Shown: one piece after another, positions 2,812-33,832 of the stretch
How the letters are laid out: each line of letters begins with the position of its first letter
Numbering within the stretch: position 1 is the first letter of the stretch
Source: a virus
Lineage: Duplodnaviria > Caudoviricetes
Length of the DNA: 55,489 bases
Virus record (IMG/VR): IMGVR_UViG_3300030106_004677
Location: 1-55,489 of that record
Strand: one strand, 5' to 3'
Notes under the pieces: generated by a model
What the model was told of the DNA's origin: nothing
What the model saw: only the letters and a program-made list of their open reading frames with translations
Database searches by the model: none
Translations under genes and position numbers: made by a program

Positions 2812-3600
2812 CTATGACGCCTCTGAAAGACCTTGAAATTTACGCCGGAGAATCTTGTCAACTTTTTGGTAACTAAACGGGACCGAAAACAAGCTCTGGA
2901 CCTCCATAGAAATTTTTCTCGACCCTAATCCGCGATCGCGCAGCGCGTAGATCGTCTTCAAAATCTCCATCTCTTCTGGAATTGGCTCCAATCGCGTGCG
3001 CTGCTTGTTGCCAATCTTGACCGGCACCAACTTGTAGCCGTAAGGCGGCGAGCCACCAATAAAGTAGCCGCGAGACGCCCAGTCGATTTTGCCCTCGCCA
3101 AACCGGTCGATCACCGTCGCGTGCTCAATCTCAGACACCGCGCTCAAGACCATCAGCATGATCTTGTTGGCCATTTCGTTCATGTCAAAGCGGCTCTTCA
3201 AGCCTTTGCCGTCGATCGGCTTGGGGTACACAACCGGCACATCGCCAAACTGCTCACAAAAATAGAGCGTAATCCCGGTCGCCTCCAAATCCGGTATCAA
3301 GTTCAGCAGGTCGCCAGCATTCCGCGACAGGCGATCAAGGCGCGTGCAGATAATGACATCGTGTTCCTCGATGCAGTCCGTCATCTCTCTGGACCCGGGA
3401 CGATCCAAAATCGGCATCGTGCCGCTAACCCCGTCATCAATAAAAAACTCATCAACCGGGCGGTTGTACTTCTCTTTCACAAACTCAGTAATCGCCTGCT
3501 GTTGCGTCTCCAAGGAGATGCCGGAGCGCACCTGCTCGCGCGTCGAGACACGGACATAGCCGAATACGCGGTTAATCTGCTTGATGGCCTTGACGCTCAT
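2812..3600 (-). CDS. Serine recombinase (resolvase/invertase catalytic domain with C-terminal extension)
   Basis: GYVRVSTREQ (catalytic Ser), DDGVSG, RLDRLSRN, then GGSPPYGY. Start moved to MSVKAIK (ATGA overlap at 3597-3600). Confidence 0.92.
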   Translation of the reverse strand: MSVKAIKQINRVFGYVRVSTREQVRSGISLETQQQAITEFVKEKYNRPVDEFFIDDGVSGTMPILDRPGSREMTDCIEEHDVIICTRLDRLSRNAGDLLNLIPDLEATGITLYFCEQFGDVPVVYPKPIDGKGLKSRFDMNEMANKIMLMVLSAVSEIEHATVIDRFGEGKIDWASRGYFIGGSPPYGYKLVPVKIGNKQRTRLEPIPEEMEILKTIYALRDRGLGSRKISMEVQSLFSVPFSYQKVDKILRRKFQGLSEAS

Positions 3601-3773
3601 TCCGGTCTCCCCACAACACAATGGCCGTTGGCCGGCCGGGAAATGCTCAGGCTGTTGCGACGATCCTTCGATCCCAGCAACTTGCGCTGCTCGTAAAAAA
3701 AATCCAAAGCATCCTCAATGCAAGAAAACTTCACCGACTCGCCGACCTTTAACGGCTCCACCGGCGCAGTCAC
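3597..3773 (-). CDS. Small hypothetical protein
   Basis: GTGA and ATGA 4-nt overlaps with both neighbours suggest translational coupling. Confidence 0.5.
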   Translation of the reverse strand: MTAPVEPLKVGESVKFSCIEDALDFFYEQRKLLGSKDRRNSLSISRPANGHCVVGRPE

Positions 3774-6888: not shown

Positions 6889-8463
6889 TTAGGTTTCAAC
6901 GCCGGAATAAGGCATCTCTGAAATGTCTTGAGCAACTTCCATAAGCGCTCCTTCGCTTGCTTCTTTTGGCGTAACAACTCCGCTAGATGTCAGCGTAAAC
7001 ATCAGCGCGCCAAGCCCCAATCCCGCGACAGAACTAATTGCTACTCCTCGGTCCTCTAACCGACGAAGCACTTTTTCCGTAATCGTTCCCGAATAAGGTT
7101 TCATTTGCAGAGATCGCATCAGACGCCTTTTTTCTGTGTCGGTCGCAGTTTTAAGCGAGGGGTCTGAAAGGACTTTTTTAGCACTGCCAATTTCCGCGTC
7201 CGGCATCAGCTCAAAGACGGTCACGTCATCTACGCCCTCTAAAACTCCGACACCGCCTCCGCGAATTGCATAGGGGTACGAAGGATGGGTAGACGAAACC
7301 AAATCCTCATCCGCAAAAATACGGCCAACATTCTTAATGCCCAGATCTATTCCAGCTCGTTGACTTTCGTCCGACATAACTAAACGAGCGGCGCCTATAG
7401 ACAATCCTTTCTTGTCGCGAAAACGAACGTCCATCATGTTCGCCAGCTCTTTCCTTTGGGCGTCAGGCAAACTTCTCCAAACGTCAACGCTTCTAGGGTC
7501 ATCTACTCCGGGCCATTCTGGAACCTTAAGGCCGGCGTTAACTCGCTTGCCTTTTCGCATTTCGCCCACAGTCTTAAAGTTGCGAATAGCCGAGTCGAGA
7601 CGTTTCTTTGTCGTCTTGCTCATGTTGGCTGATGCGTAACCAAGCATTAGCTCGCCGACAGTTGTCGAAAAATCACCGCCTGTCGGAGCCATTCTCCAAG
7701 GAATAAATAATGGGTCTCGGCCAGATTTGTCTTTCAAGCTTCTAGCTAAATCAAGAATCTGCTGAGAAGGCACTTTTGCAGAGGCCCAGACATGGTCTGG
7801 GTTTTCAAACATATAGTCTTGCCCGCCCCGCAAGTCCACCGGGCGGTACAGATTCACTTCGTTTATCGACAAAACTGAAGAGCCTGCGGCCGCCCTGTCA
7901 GACATAGAGAAGACCGCTTCTTCGCCCTCCAAATCAGAAAGCCTAAGCTCCGGCCTTGGCTGATTTGCGCCATCAAAAAGCACGGGGTCATGAGTTGTTA
8001 TTTCAGCAGTCGTTCCCCTGAGGACATCTTGTTCTTTTACTCGTGTGTCAAAGCGGGGATCAAAATCATCCACCGGATCAAGAGACCTGATCCCTTTAAC
8101 GGGGCCGCGCGCCGCCCTAACCACCCCACCTAACAAGGGAATTACGCCGGCAGCTTGCAAGGCTGTGGAAAGCTTTTCGCCTTGCTCGATGTTCTCTAGC
8201 AGGCTGGGGTTCCGCTTTGCGCTTAAAATATTTTCCAACACAGACTCTTCTGCATCGGGCGGGGCCGGGTAAAGGCCTAATGCGTCGAAGGCTCCTAACG
8301 GGTCCACAAAGGCGCCGAGAAAGTTTACAAGTTGTGCAGGAGTTGTGCTGCCGGAGGGGGGAGGAGCATACGCATCCATCCCTATCTCCATAAGCTCTTT
8401 CTTTAGCACGTCGCTCTCGACAGGACCGCCGGTGTTAAAAATATCAATTTCGTCTAGGTTCAT
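6889..8463 (-). CDS. Hypothetical protein, possibly internal virion protein
   Basis: Start MNLDEIDIFNTGGPV via ATGA overlap with the upstream stop; carries the x-x-GG-x-V motif shared with the internal proteins. Confidence 0.6.
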   Translation of the reverse strand: MNLDEIDIFNTGGPVESDVLKKELMEIGMDAYAPPPSGSTTPAQLVNFLGAFVDPLGAFDALGLYPAPPDAEESVLENILSAKRNPSLLENIEQGEKLSTALQAAGVIPLLGGVVRAARGPVKGIRSLDPVDDFDPRFDTRVKEQDVLRGTTAEITTHDPVLFDGANQPRPELRLSDLEGEEAVFSMSDRAAAGSSVLSINEVNLYRPVDLRGGQDYMFENPDHVWASAKVPSQQILDLARSLKDKSGRDPLFIPWRMAPTGGDFSTTVGELMLGYASANMSKTTKKRLDSAIRNFKTVGEMRKGKRVNAGLKVPEWPGVDDPRSVDVWRSLPDAQRKELANMMDVRFRDKKGLSIGAARLVMSDESQRAGIDLGIKNVGRIFADEDLVSSTHPSYPYAIRGGGVGVLEGVDDVTVFELMPDAEIGSAKKVLSDPSLKTATDTEKRRLMRSLQMKPYSGTITEKVLRRLEDRGVAISSVAGLGLGALMFTLTSSGVVTPKEASEGALMEVAQDISEMPYSGVET

Positions 8464-8864
8464 GCGGCCACCGAAAAGTCGTGGCAGGCAAGAAGCTCCA
8501 GCCACTGATCAAGGTCCAACACCGCCGTCTTTGTAACGTCTCTTGGCAGCGCCGGGTTTAGGGCATGCAACGGAAGCGTGACCCGGATGCCCTTGTTGTT
8601 AAATTTCCAGATCAGGATGGGGGTGCGGCCGTTAGCTGACTGGCAGACCTGATCCCACCACGCGGGGGCAAACCACCAGCCTGATTTATAGGCCTTGCAC
8701 TCGATTGCAAACCCCGGAATCTCAATGTCGCACAGGTTGTTCGACTGGTATTGATCAAGGTTGCGCTTACACTCGATCGCAAGGTTCCGTGCTTCAAAAG
8801 AAGCATTCAGACGCTTTACAATGGCGCGTTCAAACGCCGCGCCTTTGTTTCTGGAATCAGCCAT
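8460..8864 (-). CDS. PD-(D/E)XK nuclease, Holliday-junction-resolvase-like
   Basis: SRNKGAAFER...CDIEIPGFAIECK pattern typical of small phage Hjc-like nucleases. Confidence 0.8.
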   Translation of the reverse strand: MADSRNKGAAFERAIVKRLNASFEARNLAIECKRNLDQYQSNNLCDIEIPGFAIECKAYKSGWWFAPAWWDQVCQSANGRTPILIWKFNNKGIRVTLPLHALNPALPRDVTKTAVLDLDQWLELLACHDFSVAA

Positions 8865-8885
8865 AGGCTGATTCTACGAATCAAT

Positions 8886-8967
8886 GCCGCAGTCCTGCAA
8901 TGGGCAGGGGGCGCCGGTTCTGCCTGATCGGCGGCGAGCGGGGTTCAAATCCCCGCCTGCGGCACCA
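8886..8967 (+). tRNA. Non-canonical tRNA-like element with encoded CCA
   Basis: Acceptor GCCGCAG/CTGCGGC plus ACCA; T-arm GCGGGG-TTCAAAT-CCCCGC; short D-arm CTGC-AATGG-GCAG; anticodon-like arm CGCCGGT-TCTGCCTG-ATCGGCG with an 8-nt loop. Confidence 0.65.
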
Positions 8968-8972
8968 ATAAA

Positions 8973-9090
8973 TGGCTCGATTTCCTATTATGGGTGGCTA
9001 AATATTCTCTGGCGCGCTCGATACTTCTGGGTGGCTTGCAACTTATGACGCGCTACATCTTAGCGGGTTTCTTTTGCATCTTGGCGGGCT
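8973..9090 (-). ncRNA. TIGR-like array, distal segment (about 3 units)
   Basis: Edge-type repeats at 8973, 9010, 9046 and 9082; loop-type repeats TGGGTGGCT at 8991 and 9028, degenerate at 9064; 9-10-nt spacers. Confidence 0.75.
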
Positions 9091-9241
9091 TCAGCCACGG
9101 CCGCGAAAGCCACGGCTGAACCATAGACGCACGGTACATCTCCACGTCGCCTGAACGCGACTTCAGTTTCGTGTGACAAGCGCGGCAAGCTTTGTTTTGT
9201 GGCTTGATCAACTTGCCGCACGCGCACTCTTTCATCCTCAT
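9053..9241 (-). CDS. Small basic Zn-finger-like protein located inside the array
   Basis: CACG...CRACH; RBS-like AAAGGA upstream; lies between the two array segments. Confidence 0.6.
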   Translation of the reverse strand: MRMKECACGKLIKPQNKACRACHTKLKSRSGDVEMYRASMVQPWLSRPWLKPAKMQKKPAKM

Positions 9242-9278
9242 GGGGTCCGTTCCTTTATGTTGGTTAAATCCAAATATC

Positions 9279-9722
9279 TGACTCGCTTGTCATGAATGGA
9301 TGCCTCCCTCCAAATGGCTCGCTTGCAGAGGTTGAATAAATCGCTGCTAGTGGCTCGTTTCGCGGCGATGGGTAACTAGATTAGTTTGACTCGCTTGATG
9401 CGCTTGGGTGGCCTTCTTCATGCGGCTCGTTAATTGATCATGGGGTGACTTATTACCCTCGACTCGCTTTTATGGTTTGGGTGATTACGTCCGTCTGACT
9501 CGTTTCAACACTTTGGGTGACTCTATATCCTGTGACTCGCTGCATAGCGGTGGGTGACTAAACTCCCATGACTCGTTCTTTCTAAGATGGGTGACTTTTC
9601 TTTTATGACTCGTTTCGTGGATCTGGGTGAATTTCCTACCTAGGCTCGTTCACTTTGATTGAGTGATTTTCTCTAACTGACTCGTTTGATTCTTTTGGGT
9701 GACTTAGATCGGGCGGCTTAAT
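9279..9722 (-). ncRNA. TIGR-like dual-repeat guide RNA array (12 units of 36-37 nt)
   Basis: Plus-strand repeat TG(A/G)CTCG(C/T)T at 9279, 9315, 9351, 9387, 9423, 9460, 9496, 9533, 9569, 9606, 9642, 9678 and degenerate at 9714. It alternates with a TGGGTGACT-type repeat, each separated by unique 9-10-nt spacers. Begins 3 nt after the stop of the Nop-fold gene; one more degenerate unit at 9243-9278. Confidence 0.9.
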
Positions 9723-9725
9723 CCA

Positions 9726-10598
9726 TCACGCAACCTTGTGCACAATACCCAGCTTAGCCTCCGAATACTCCGGGGCCACCGGGAGTCCCTCAAGCTCACG
9801 CCACACCTTGTACAGATCGGTCAAAAACCGCTTGACCATGTACCGAACCGCCATGTTATGGATGTGGCCTTTGCTCTTCTCCGCGTGAGCCGGCATGTGC
9901 TGCAACCGATGCTTGTAGTTGTCGTACACCTCGCGATAGGGGCCGCCGGACTTAATGAACGATGAGCCCAATACCCCAACCAACTTCGTTTTCACAAAAG
10001 GATTGAAGGAAATCCCCTTCTTGGTCTGCTCGTTGCCCTCCGCATCGACGTAGGTTTGGTCAACGAGGTGTTCTTTCTGACGCGATCGGCCCTTGCCATT
10101 AACCACGTCCAGCCCGGCATAGGCATGAAGTGAAGACGGGTACTGAGCCTTATGGATGTCGAACTGGCTGATGATCACGGCCGACATCATCGGGCCACAA
10201 CCCTTCACGTCCTCAAGGAACTCGGTGTAGATGGGGAAGGCCCGGACGGCGTACTTCAGATGCCTCTCCGCATCCTCTTCGCTCTCGACCAAAGCGTTGT
10301 ACATCTCGATCAACGCCAGCTCACTGAACGTAGAGATATGGCCATGCTGCTTGAAGCTGCGGGGTGTCAGGTTGGCAACCCCGTCAGTGATCCGCTCATA
10401 AGAGGATCTCAGGTCAGCCAACAGCAGCTTCGCATCTATCTCCAAAACCTCCTCGGACTCGCCGGGATTTTGGCCGATTTTTTCTTTGAAATTAGCAACG
10501 ATCGCGTTGCCGATCTTGATCCGACTGGACTGAATCGTATACAGGCCGTTGACGGCACTCTTCAGAATTTGGCTTTCGACATTCATGCTCTGCTCCAT
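9726..10598 (-). CDS. tasA: TIGR-associated Nop-domain RNA-binding protein lacking a nuclease domain (TasA-like; IS110/IS116-related fold)
   Basis: Coiled-coil N-terminus, then DVKGCGPMMSAVIISQFD...SSLHAYAGL...FNPFVKTKL...HIHNMAVRYMVKRFL as in the IS110 C-terminal/Nop domain. No RuvC/DEDD or HNH motif and no IS110 catalytic SG motif; adjacent to the dual-repeat array. Confidence 0.82.
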   Translation of the reverse strand: MEQSMNVESQILKSAVNGLYTIQSSRIKIGNAIVANFKEKIGQNPGESEEVLEIDAKLLLADLRSSYERITDGVANLTPRSFKQHGHISTFSELALIEMYNALVESEEDAERHLKYAVRAFPIYTEFLEDVKGCGPMMSAVIISQFDIHKAQYPSSLHAYAGLDVVNGKGRSRQKEHLVDQTYVDAEGNEQTKKGISFNPFVKTKLVGVLGSSFIKSGGPYREVYDNYKHRLQHMPAHAEKSKGHIHNMAVRYMVKRFLTDLYKVWRELEGLPVAPEYSEAKLGIVHKVA

Positions 10599-10653
10599 GA
10601 TTGTAAGTGTCTCTACGGGTTAGCCCCCGACCCGAAGGCCGAGGGCGGTGGGG

Positions 10654-11253
10654 TTAGCTGGCCTCGAGCAGCCGTTCATACTCAGCCAGACGCTTTCGCG
10701 CCTCACGCCGTCCGTATGCGACGTTGTCCGCAAACGGGTCTCGATCCCCAGCAATGCAGTCCGGCGGGTAGACGTAGATTTTGGGGTAATCGTCGTCGTA
10801 CAGGTCGCAGTCGATACGGGCGGCCCAGTCCTCAATGGACTCTTGGCGGCGGCGAGACCTCTTCGGCTTCGCCTCCACAACAGGCAGCGCCACGGTGATC
10901 GGCAGATACTTCTCGCGGATCAACAGGGCACCGTCCCGCTCCAGCTCTAAATGGCGGGCACTATGAGGCTTGTAACCGAGACGGCGACCCACGTAGTGAG
11001 AAAACAGGTGGTTCAGGTCTTCCCAGCCCTTCTCGGGATTGATTATCAGCTCACCGCGCCGAACCCAAGAATAGCGATTGCCGCTGGTCTTCTTGACCGA
11101 ATTCCACGGCACCCTCTTAGTGCTGGCATGGCGACGCCAGTACGCGACGGCGTACTGCTCCCCGTGCTTCACAGTCAGCGTTCGATCCTCGGCGGGAGAC
11201 ACACCGTCCCACGCCTTGCCCATGATCCGCTCGTAGTCGTCCGATAGGCTCAT
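10654..11253 (-). CDS. Hypothetical protein, first gene after promoter copy 2
   Basis: Start MSLSDDYER with RBS AAGGAG; His-containing segments LNHLFSH and HSARH hint at metal binding. Confidence 0.7.
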   Translation of the reverse strand: MSLSDDYERIMGKAWDGVSPAEDRTLTVKHGEQYAVAYWRRHASTKRVPWNSVKKTSGNRYSWVRRGELIINPEKGWEDLNHLFSHYVGRRLGYKPHSARHLELERDGALLIREKYLPITVALPVVEAKPKRSRRRQESIEDWAARIDCDLYDDDYPKIYVYPPDCIAGDRDPFADNVAYGRREARKRLAEYERLLEAS

Positions 11254-17905: not shown

Positions 17906-19714
17906 TTACCCCCAAATCTTGTTGGGCTCGCAGCCCAGATTAATTAACTGCTGGCGATACTTCTTGAGCATCGCCTTGGCCAGATGCTGTTGTGCCGGTG
18001 ACCATGTCGGGCGAGATGCCAGACTGTGGCCGATCGATGTATCGATTGCGTTGAAGCCAGCAGCGTCGTCTCGGTTCGCGCCGTCACACACCCGGGCCAA
18101 AGCCTTGCAGCAAGACTGAAGCTCAGCAACGACCTTCTTGGGAAGCGCTTTCGGCTGAACTTTCTGCGCCACGCCTTCAGCAATCTCTTCGATTGAGACG
18201 GGATCGGTAACGACCACGTCGTCAAGCGCCTTGTCGAGCACGGCTTGCTTGCTGACCAGCGTCTCAGCAAGACGGGCGTCGATCGATCCGTCTACCACGA
18301 TGTGCTGCACAAGCACGCTGGACTGCTGACCGATGCGGTGACAGCGATCTTCGGCTTGGCTGATGGCGCCGGGAACCCAATCCAGCTCAGCGAAAACGAC
18401 ATGGCTCGCGTGAGTCAGGGTGATGCCCACACCGGCTGCGCCGATGGTGCCGATGAGCACGTCGGCTTCGCCGGCTTGGAATGCCTCCACAGAGGCCTGA
18501 CGATCAGCGGCACCCATGTCGCCGGTGAGCGTGACCACGGTGCGGCCCGCAGCAGCAAGCGCGGAGCGGATCTTTTCGACCACGTCCTTGTGATGGGCCA
18601 TGACGACGACCGGGTGGTCGATCTCGATCAGATGATCAACGACCGCATCAGATTTAGCCAGCGCCATCATGTGTCGCGCTTCGCTCATTTGCTCAAACGC
18701 GATGTCAGCACCCTCAGAGGTGTTTGCAACCGCGTCGCTCAGCCCGTCGAACTCGCGTGCCAGTTCTTCTTTGAAGCCCTTCTTGGGGAGCACGATGACC
18801 TGACGCTGCTTCTCAGGCAGCTCGGTCAGCACGTCAACTTTTTTCCGGCGAATCATGATTGACTGGCGGAGTTGGCGCTGCAGTTCGTCCAAATTCGAAG
18901 CGCCATCAAAATGCCATCCAAATCTATCTTGGTAAGCGCCGGCGAATTTGACGCCGAACTGGAAGAAGCTGCCGAAGGCTCGCGGCGCGAGGTAGTCGAC
19001 AATGGGGTGCAGTTCGATGGGGCGGTTTGAAATCGGCGTGCCCGTGAGCATGATCTTGCGATCAGCTTTGATCGAGGTCGCGACTTTGGTCCGCTTCGCC
19101 TTGCCGTTTTTGCAGTAGTGCGCCTCGTCCATAATGACGAGGGACCATGTGCGGCTGAGCAGCGCGTCAGAGTGCTTGGAGAGCACGTCGTAGTTAATGA
19201 TGACAACGTCGGGGTCGGCTGGGATTTGCTCGCCGCCGCCGTTGACGATAGCGATCTCGCGGTCAGCTACGAGCCATTTCTCCATCTCGTTGGCCCAGTT
19301 GATTTTGAGGCTGGCCGGGCAGACAACCAGCACCGTCTTGGGGTTGGTCACATTGACCACGCCGATCGCCTGAATTGTCTTGCCAAGGCCCATTTCGTCG
19401 CCGATCAGGGTCGCGGGACGGTTAGCCGCGTAAGCGATGCCGGCGCGCTGATAAGGGAGGTATTCCAAGCCAGCAGGCACGGGGATGTCCATGTCGCTGG
19501 ACGTTGCCTGCGAGGCCTCGATGGAGGCGACATCGTCGCGATAACGGGTGACGACCCATGCGCCGCCGTCCTTGCGGACGCTGTAGCCTGCGGCCTTGAC
19601 CGCAGTTTTGCGCTCGCGCCAGACCTGCCAGAACTCTTGGCTAGGTGCGGCCGTAGCGACCAACTGCCCTCGGGCATTTTTGGTCTCGGCGCTCCAGTTC
19701 AGTTCGATGTTCAT
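17906..19714 (-). CDS. SNF2-family (SMARCAL1/HARP-like) helicase
   Basis: DEMGLGKT, VVCPASLK, DEAH, LTGTP and QAEDRCHRIGQ motifs. Confidence 0.93.
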   Translation of the reverse strand: MNIELNWSAETKNARGQLVATAAPSQEFWQVWRERKTAVKAAGYSVRKDGGAWVVTRYRDDVASIEASQATSSDMDIPVPAGLEYLPYQRAGIAYAANRPATLIGDEMGLGKTIQAIGVVNVTNPKTVLVVCPASLKINWANEMEKWLVADREIAIVNGGGEQIPADPDVVIINYDVLSKHSDALLSRTWSLVIMDEAHYCKNGKAKRTKVATSIKADRKIMLTGTPISNRPIELHPIVDYLAPRAFGSFFQFGVKFAGAYQDRFGWHFDGASNLDELQRQLRQSIMIRRKKVDVLTELPEKQRQVIVLPKKGFKEELAREFDGLSDAVANTSEGADIAFEQMSEARHMMALAKSDAVVDHLIEIDHPVVVMAHHKDVVEKIRSALAAAGRTVVTLTGDMGAADRQASVEAFQAGEADVLIGTIGAAGVGITLTHASHVVFAELDWVPGAISQAEDRCHRIGQQSSVLVQHIVVDGSIDARLAETLVSKQAVLDKALDDVVVTDPVSIEEIAEGVAQKVQPKALPKKVVAELQSCCKALARVCDGANRDDAAGFNAIDTSIGHSLASRPTWSPAQQHLAKAMLKKYRQQLINLGCEPNKIWG

Positions 19715-19761
19715 TTTTCTTTTCCGGTTTAAGCGGGGGCGACATGCCCCCGACAAAAAGA

Positions 19762-33403: not shown

Positions 33404-33832
33404 TCAGGCGAGCCTGATGATGGCGCCCGTGGCAGTCGGCGAAGGAAACACAACCGTAAAGTCGCCGGCCGTGGAGGTCTTGTCGCCGCCAAAATCTATC
33501 GCGCAGACTGCTTTGTCGCTTTGCGTGTCGTTATAGATCAAACACCCGCGCGCAGTGACCGTGGCAGTGCCAAAAGTCAAATCTGCGAAGTCGCATACAG
33601 CAGTGGTGCCCGACGTGGTCGGCGTCACAGACGTAAGCGCAGAGCCGCCGGCCGTGTAATTCGTGCCGCTGGCCTGACCCGTGGTTACGTAGGCGGTGGT
33701 GCCTGCGCCAAGCGTGGCGCTAGACGTGTATAGCGCGAGCTTAAACGAGTTACCGGAAGAGGCAGTAAAATTGTGCGTTCCAACCAGCAATTCTTGCTTG
33801 AAGCTAGTCGCGATTGCAGAGGTAATGGCCAT
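33404..33832 (-). CDS. Virion structural protein (142 aa)
   Basis: T/S/G/A-rich beta protein (FKLALYTSSA...DFGGDKTST) in the tail module. Confidence 0.7.
   Translation of the reverse strand: MAITSAIATSFKQELLVGTHNFTASSGNSFKLALYTSSATLGAGTTAYVTTGQASGTNYTAGGSALTSVTPTTSGTTAVCDFADLTFGTATVTARGCLIYNDTQSDKAVCAIDFGGDKTSTAGDFTVVFPSPTATGAIIRLA

Follow-up and report, generated by a model that had tools for sequence, protein, structure and literature searches.

Positions 8,973 to 10,598 of IMG/VR virus record IMGVR_UViG_3300030106_004677 (Caudoviricetes) hold a gene for a TIGR-associated protein, tasA, and, directly behind it, an array of short alternating repeats. The record was analysed over its whole length (55,489 bases, estimated to be 100% complete) and is referred to below as the window. 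TIGR arrays have been defined by two alternating repeats of 8-12 nt, with spacers of ~9 nt, lying beside a tas gene (Faure et al. 2025, PMC12045711). Both repeats are described as having a 3' box C (CCA) and a 5' box D (UG) that pair and covary, and the array as being bounded by truncated edge repeats, the last of them accompanied by a terminator. An earlier note on this DNA had proposed that the locus is such a system, encoded by a phage and of the nuclease-less TasA type.

The open reading frame (ORF) of tasA closes with a TGA at 9728-9726. The array opens 3 nt beyond it on the same (minus) strand, exactly where the earlier note had placed its beginning, with a degenerate edge repeat, ATTAAGCCG (9722-9714). 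Read on this strand, each unit is made of the edge repeat A(A/G)CGAG(T/C)CA, a spacer A of 9-10 nt, the loop repeat AGTCACCCA and a spacer B of 9-10 nt, both repeats being 9 nt long. In sub-array 1 the degenerate 5' edge is followed by 12 units that are well formed and by a 13th that is degenerate, with the loop ATTTAACCA and the closing edge AACGGACCC. Its edge-to-edge periods are 36,36,36,37,36,37,36,37,36,36,36,36,36. Sub-array 2 is separated from it by a small ORF, zn62, and shows the edges AGCGCGTCA or AGCGCGCCA, the loop AGCCACCCA twice and the closing edge ATCGAGCCA. Among the related viral loci that were used for comparison (designated L003, L004 and so on), L025 has this second part with 2 units, and L024 and L026 have it with 1 each. 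The total in the window is 15 units and not the 12 previously claimed, since the degenerate 13th has to be added as well as the 2 units beyond the zinc-ribbon gene, which had been overlooked. The alternation of 36 and 37 in the earlier list of periods stands, but its 37s were set one place too late. All spacers had been described as different on a count of 24, and this holds for the complete set, in which 30/30 are distinct.

The pattern CGAGYCA-N11-13-CACCCA occurs 4 times in the window, always within the array; dinucleotide shuffles contain it 0.02 times on average and 0/100 reach 4. Searched with at most 1 mismatch, the loop AGTCACCCA gave 19 matches in the 55,489 bases, 10 of which fall within 8991-9704, all on the minus strand. 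Tandem Repeats Finder reported nothing, as expected for units in which conservation extends to half of the length only. The 3' end is CCA in the loops and UCA or CCA in the edges, and the 5' ends of the repeats read AG or AA. Among the 124 distinct units counted in the clade (one of them, located within the zinc-ribbon ORF at its 3' end, is degenerate and doubtful), the spacers contain 31-37% A and 17-20% C on the RNA strand; on that strand the genome has 25% and 26%. An A stands at position 9 of spacer B in 58% of these units, and the edge repeat may therefore extend one base further than drawn here. A strong structure (-47.3 kcal/mol, z -2.2) lies beyond the end of the array.

The 290-residue product of tasA matched NCBIfam NF052498 ('TIGR-Tas system RNA-guided endonuclease') with 135.5 bits against a cut-off of 100 (E=2.5e-39), over residues 14-267 and profile positions 3-215 of 215. 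A phmmer search of PDB sequences found TaTasR (9mty, E=5e-15) and SpTasH (E=1e-8); with a profile built from 51 relatives the values were E=5.5e-20 and E=1e-10, respectively, and there was no other match at E<=1. In a Pfam scan the IS110 C-terminal family (Transposase_20) stayed below threshold for the window protein (E=0.0013, 19.6 bits vs 21.3); it was detected at E<=0.01 in 43/51 aligned relatives, and the Pfam DEDD, HNH and RuvC families in 0/51. The family is large, with 1371 proteins at E<=1e-3, the best 120 of 1371 spanning 236-301 residues, and with cluster representatives numbering 4344 at E<=1e-3 and 837 at E<=1e-30. The true start of tasA is likely the ATG at 10586, giving 286 residues; it has a GGAG upstream and is the start used in catalogued near-identical proteins, which begin with MNVESQ.

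An AlphaFold2 model built from 51 sequences reached a mean predicted local distance difference test score (pLDDT) of 81 and a predicted template modelling score (pTM) of 0.74. It predicts a long helix at the very start (2-40), a second coiled-coil helix (90-118) and then a Nop domain, in which residues 179-195 make a beta-hairpin. The coiled coil is interrupted by an insertion (41-89) that is poorly modelled, pLDDT being <50 for 65-88. Foldseek searches with this model returned TasH or TasR in all of the best 10 rows (E 3e-10 to 1.5e-7), IS621 coming next. With VIA-align, 218 residues were aligned to TasH (Z 20.7, root-mean-square deviation 3.0; model 6-289 on chain 65-300) and 194 to TasR (Z 19.7, deviation 2.0; model 6-288 on chain 110-317). 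The values for IS621 / ISCro4 (Z 14-15) and for Nop5, Nop56/58 and Prp31 (Z about 8) were lower. The whole model corresponds to what follows the nuclease domains in TasR and TasH, which is the TasA architecture. Judged by this model, the 290-residue protein is TasA, a member of the Tas family without a nuclease domain. The earlier note had expected a Nop-like fold in structure prediction and Foldseek comparison and no nuclease domain. Both expectations were borne out, TasA mapping behind RuvC and HNH and 51/51 relatives being free of any Pfam nuclease family. An intact DEDD domain in close homologues, which the note would have counted against its reading, was seen in 0/51.

In SpTasH, Tyr289 and His296 are the catalytic residues that cut the guide precursor (PMC13421893; bioRxiv 10.64898/2026.09.09.750476, section 10). 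Y278 of TasA aligns with Y289, while H287 is found two residues past H296; both Y278 and H287 are invariant in 51/51 aligned relatives.

Table 1. Features of the tasA locus, followed by other features of the window referred to in the text
Feature	Position	Strand	Description
tasA, TIGR-associated protein predicted to be nuclease-free (coiled coil + Nop domain)	9726..10598	-	290 residues from first ATG
TIGR sub-array 1	9243..9722	-	13 dual-repeat units, 36-37 nt each
zn62, putative zinc-ribbon protein gene between the sub-arrays	9053..9241	-	62 residues; motifs CxCG...CxAC, MY(R/K)AS..QPWLS
TIGR sub-array 2	8973..9054	-	2 units
tRNA-like cloverleaf	8885..8963	+	ends in CCA; just past last array unit
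small PD-(D/E)XK nuclease gene, next downstream	8460..8864	-	Pfam PF24608 E=4.4e-9; PHROG 244 E=1e-15
serine integrase/invertase-like gene	2812..3621	-	PHROG 95, E=2e-41
SNF2 helicase gene	17906..19756		616 residues

RNA signature and turnover of the array units

Covariation between repeat positions was evaluated by Fisher test on 122 distinct units from 15 loci of the window's clade. Edge position 7 and position 2 of the edge one unit further downstream covary with p=1.8e-8, a value that, like those below, overstates independence, the units being kin by descent. Within one and the same edge repeat, positions 7 and 2 are not associated (p=0.28). Across the unit, a C is met by a G in 17/20 cases, and a U by an A in 81/99 and by a G in 18/99. 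Loop positions 2 and 7 form the pairs G-C (84), A-U (7), G-U (4) and A-C (1), with p=2e-7. The excess of G-U (18) over A-C (3) between edges indicates that the tas-sense strand is the RNA. The whole pattern fits a guide that spans from mid-edge to mid-next-edge with its ends paired, that is, a 36-nt RNA, and it mirrors the box C/D pairing of the TasR structure (PMC12045711, section 8 and Figure 6 legend).

This observation bears on the possibility that the repeats act as DNA, for instance as iteron-like sites for a phage DNA-binding protein in replication or partition. Short, regularly spaced repeats in a replication module could be iterons. However, a covariation that links one edge to the next 36 nt away, tolerating G-U and not A-C, is the signature of a one-strand RNA, and solved relatives of the adjoining Tas protein bind exactly such RNAs. 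We consider the iteron explanation very improbable.

Nine viral loci encode a Tas protein 82-98% identical to that of the window; both repeats are kept in them, with arrays of about 8 to 28 units. Seven of the window's 15 units are also present in L003, whose protein is 98% identical, and one of these seven is in L004 too, the remaining units being unique among the 124 distinct clade units. Spacers that were invariant among related phages would have spoken against the proposal of the earlier note; they vary, with only 7/15 units found again even in L003. Units in common between loci mostly sit at the far end of the array; in L011 and L008, some units have a near-duplicate next to them that differs by 1-3 bases. 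In DNA contigs from another marine study the flanks are unchanged, but units are exchanged or missing between them (joints 9429 to 9560 and 9615 to 9678). Much further away, Ralstonia phage phiRSL1 encodes a 35.6% identical protein annotated as a transposase, behind which lies an unannotated array of 1.4 kb with the same AGTCACCC loop.

A 616-residue SNF2-type helicase gene is interposed between tas and the array in L003 (L003:1770-3620), so the array is ~2.1 kb from tas there; the window has its own SNF2 helicase gene of 616 residues (Table 1).

Proposed function, spacer targets and rival explanations

The proposal of the earlier note is supported in every part that could be tested. Its identification of a phage-encoded TasA-type system, protein and dual-spacer array together, agrees with the NF052498 score of 135.5 bits, the Z values of 19.7-20.7 and the published anatomy of such arrays. 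We therefore read the locus, with a probability of roughly 0.85, as a dual-repeat TIGR-TasA system of a marine tailed phage that binds DNA without cutting it. This reading draws directly on family membership, on the absence of a nuclease domain, on array anatomy, on RNA-type covariation, on conservation of the processing residues and on unit turnover.

By analogy with published Tas proteins, from which 36-nt processing, tandem-spacer binding and repression are inferred, the system would operate as follows. tasA and the array would be co-transcribed from the minus strand, and a TasA dimer, joined by its coiled coil, would bind the precursor at the repeats, whose 3' ends bear a presumed box C-like (C/U)CA and whose 5' ends a presumed box D-like A(G/A). 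Tyr278 and His287 could cut the precursor inside each edge repeat and release 36-37-nt tigRNAs composed of half an edge, spacer A, loop, spacer B and half an edge. FpTasA binds 36-nt RNAs (Faure et al. 2025, PMC12045711). The ribonucleoprotein would bind a DNA site of ~18 bp, with spacer B on one strand and spacer A on the adjoining stretch of the other. In a protein without a nuclease domain, the DNA would be held or bent, and transcription or replication blocked with no cleavage. MbTasA has been shown to bind its target DNA and to repress genes reversibly, the DNA staying uncut (bioRxiv 10.64898/2026.09.09.750476, section 12).

Spacer targets were searched with a working site geometry derived from the data of Faure et al., in which spacer B is followed, after 0-2 bp, by spacer A in reverse complement. 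These authors describe 8-nt 3' overhangs, tolerated gaps of 1-2 bp and inactivity of reverse-complemented spacers (PMC12045711).

Several observations weigh against the reading given above. With up to 4 mismatches, the 15 units gave 14 matches to the window and 210 mismatched-pair controls gave 166; with up to 2 mismatches, the 124 clade units gave 3 matches and 617 controls gave 7. Exact matches in viral contigs, a search of joined spacer pairs that the earlier note had proposed, revealed no target for units 9 and 11. Unit 9 matched 8 stretches (4 independent groups) in the working geometry and 5 in the opposite one, and unit 11 matched 6 stretches (2 independent groups) and 0, respectively. 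Since the non-working geometry yields 5 and 0 stretches, these counts are at chance level. Five of the unit 11 matches are one homologous Ala/Ser-rich gene and the sixth is unrelated, while one group of unit 9 matches coincides exactly with the start of a gene that is preceded by AGGAG in a complete phage genome of 64 kb. In the four records with a unit 9 match, only unit 9 and its two variants match; none of the other 121 distinct clade units does so at <=2 mismatches in the working geometry. The repeats open with AG or AA, as opposed to UG in TasR arrays, and no terminator-like site was found 3' of the array on the minus strand. Repression by a TasA has been shown for another TasA in E. coli, not for one of the window's clade (bioRxiv 10.64898/2026.09.09.750476). 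Finally, the sole signal from RNA libraries comes from one sample, two metatranscriptome runs of which each contain a 153-nt contig that matches 9422-9570 with 0 differences. As DNA may have been carried over, this hints only weakly at expression; tas and the rest of the stretch were uncovered in the two runs, which is no evidence of silence. Box motifs of TIGR repeats can diverge (Faure et al. 2025, PMC12045711), and most TIGR spacers are without an assigned target according to Xu et al. (preprint, bioRxiv 10.64898/2026.09.09.750476).

The same searches address the idea that the system regulates the phage's own genes, as a lifecycle switch at its promoters or gene starts. Allowing for 2 mismatches and a gap of 2 bp, unit 11, which is present in the window, L003 and L004, matches 33804-33823 on the minus strand, starting 9 nt past the ATG at 33832 (minus), the start of an unlisted ORF, MAITSAIATSFKQELL... 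This lone match is nevertheless within chance (3 for 124 units vs 7 for 617 shuffled pairings), and every match of a unit to the window carries at least 2 mismatches, 0 units having fewer. Own-gene regulation thus appears improbable. Because matches to the phage's own genome do not exceed chance, the targets more probably lie in host genes or in competing mobile elements.

It could also be imagined that TasA only finds the site and that a separate nuclease, encoded by the PD-(D/E)XK gene after the array, cuts in trans, which would make the whole an RNA-guided nuclease. In the window this gene comes next after the array on the same strand. In the L006 and L008 lineages, which are more distant, the array is likewise followed by a small nuclease-like gene (D...ExK, a motif recognised by eye). 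We count it as a neighbour of the array rather than as a demonstrated part of the system. Its adjacency is explained by descent, the phages being related and gene order being conserved in a replication/recombination module that has a primase, an exonuclease and a helicase in the window and a polymerase-like ORF in L006 and L008. Small PD-(D/E)XK nucleases are moreover common as resolvase-type phage genes, which counts against such a partnership. Published TasA works without cleavage (bioRxiv 10.64898/2026.09.09.750476), and cutting in trans seems quite improbable to us.

If the locus were the remnant of an IS110-family insertion sequence together with its bridge RNA region, this would account for the weak Transposase_20 match, which is below the cut-off, and for a match to PHROG 4285, labelled 'transposase'. 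The window protein nevertheless scores 18.8 bits against a cut-off of 140 with NCBIfam NF033542, its relatives lack the DEDD domain, the length of the family is uniform at about 286-290 residues and a multi-unit array takes the place of a single bridge RNA; such an origin is hardly credible. CRISPR-Cas was rejected, in agreement with the earlier note: the array has two 9-nt repeats, not one of ~25-36 nt, and PADLOC detected no Cas core protein among the 50 ORFs of the window, matching only an SNF2 helicase and a generic 2OG domain.

zn62, neighbouring elements and the phage

The ATG of zn62 lies 1 nt past the closing edge of sub-array 1, and its stop codon overlaps the first edge of sub-array 2. 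Pfam zinc-ribbon matches to its product are below the cut-off. Homologues are nevertheless found inside the arrays of related phages with 95, 92-95, 75 and 46% identity, and their alignment contains 20 invariant columns, including four cysteines and the QPWLS motif. zn62 is kept in 7/9 clade loci with enough downstream sequence and is absent from L006 and L007. Array units flank it on both sides in six loci checked. The homologous loci detected in viral contigs are on Tas contigs in 6/6 cases, in a search that reaches close relatives only. Compared with the L004 homologue, 7 synonymous and 3 non-synonymous codon differences were counted over 63 codons. On this pattern of conservation, zn62 is evidently a real gene.

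Its link to TasA may come through mere shared descent. We regard as doubtful the more specific idea that zn62 is a dedicated accessory subunit of the TasA clade, providing a zinc ribbon in trans from an mRNA freed by the edge-repeat cuts that make the guides. An ESM Atlas search with zn62 gave a best score of 0.87, under the threshold for a lead. Among the matches listed for literature pairing tigRNA with zinc, there were apparently general editing reviews or methods.

In the lineage of the window, the 12 C-terminal residues of zn62 seem to derive from a decayed array unit, with an edge-like AGCCCGCCA and a loop-like AGAAACCCG; this tail is absent in the L008 and L011 homologues. In L012-L015, a clade with a 53%-identical Tas, a 61-residue ORF with a C4 zinc finger directly precedes tas (e.g. 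L013:2789-2974). Its motif, CDGCGE...CGRC, looks TraR/DksA-like by eye, and its sequence is unrelated to zn62.

The tRNA-like cloverleaf just past the last unit (Table 1) is conserved at L024:2731-2812, L025:2775-2857 and L026:2730-2812, on the minus strand of those loci. The acceptor stem counts 8 bp, the T arm reads GGUUCAAAUCC, which is canonical, and the 'anticodon' stem of 10 bp is closed by a 6-nt loop; the folding energy is -49.1 kcal/mol (z -3.5). ARAGORN called no tRNA in the window or in L024-L026, and Rfam gave only a sub-threshold tRNA-Sec match to the element (21.7 bits vs 47). The reverse complement of the cloverleaf is the structured end of the array transcript.

PHROG matches in the window comprise a large terminase, a portal, a major head protein, a tail spike, a primase-helicase, the SNF2 helicase, an exonuclease and a serine integrase/invertase. 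The latter gene suggests that the phage may be temperate or may hold an invertible segment. The stretch 8900-10700 was found wholly or partly in 20 marine metagenome rows from 8 studies; 4 of these rows may be the source itself. The nearest large terminases are those of phage 023Pt_psg01 (61%) and of the Pelagibacter phages HTVC027P and HTVC023P (57%), and megablast of positions 1-25000 against cultured phages gave no match. Pelagibacter genomes are low in G+C. This genus appears an unlikely host, the window's G+C of 48-61% in 2-kb windows being unlike it. A search of bacterial genomes on the host question returned only 3 weak or distant matches.

Comparison with known systems

The TIGR-TasA system of the window is already known in kind. 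A 31-residue stretch of its TasA occurs at least 16 times in supplementary file 3 of Faure et al. 2025, where two entries are near-identical 286-residue proteins starting with MNVESQ and the 83% relative from L006 is listed too. The window's own locus was not found described in the texts consulted on TIGR-Tas. Nothing here is new in kind, and the value of the locus is that of a clean natural example in a complete 55-kb phage that recurs across marine studies. To this is added a small conserved gene embedded in the array. In addition, close relatives share, lose, duplicate and mutate whole units, which bears on how TIGR arrays change.

TasA has the same RNA-binding fold as IS110/IS621 recombinases and as Nop5, Nop56/58 and Prp31. 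It differs from these families in lacking a DEDD/RuvC domain, a single bridge RNA and the partners fibrillarin and L7Ae. Its coiled coil and Nop domain superpose on those of TaTasR (PDB 9mty) and SpTasH (PDB 9w04, 21kl and others), and the Tyr/His processing pair of SpTasH is conserved. Unlike these two proteins, TasA has no counterpart to the first ~109 residues of TasR (RuvC) or ~64 of TasH (HNH), and it carries the insertion at residues 41-89. Its array also departs from the published TasR arrays in the AG or AA start of the repeats.

The closest resemblance by description is to dual-repeat systems such as FpTasA of Flavonifractor plautii (PMC12045711), a solo protein of coiled coil and Nop domain without a nuclease. 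The window differs from them in that the array is split by the zinc-ribbon gene and shows no canonical terminator. Common to both are a same-strand array beside the gene, alternating 9-nt repeats, spacers of 9-10 nt in a 36-37-nt unit, repeats that end in CCA or UCA, a 5' degenerate first edge and a viral origin. As a nuclease-free TasA, the protein is also like MbTasA (Xu et al. 2026, bioRxiv 10.64898/2026.09.09.750476), from which its probable function is transferred by family.

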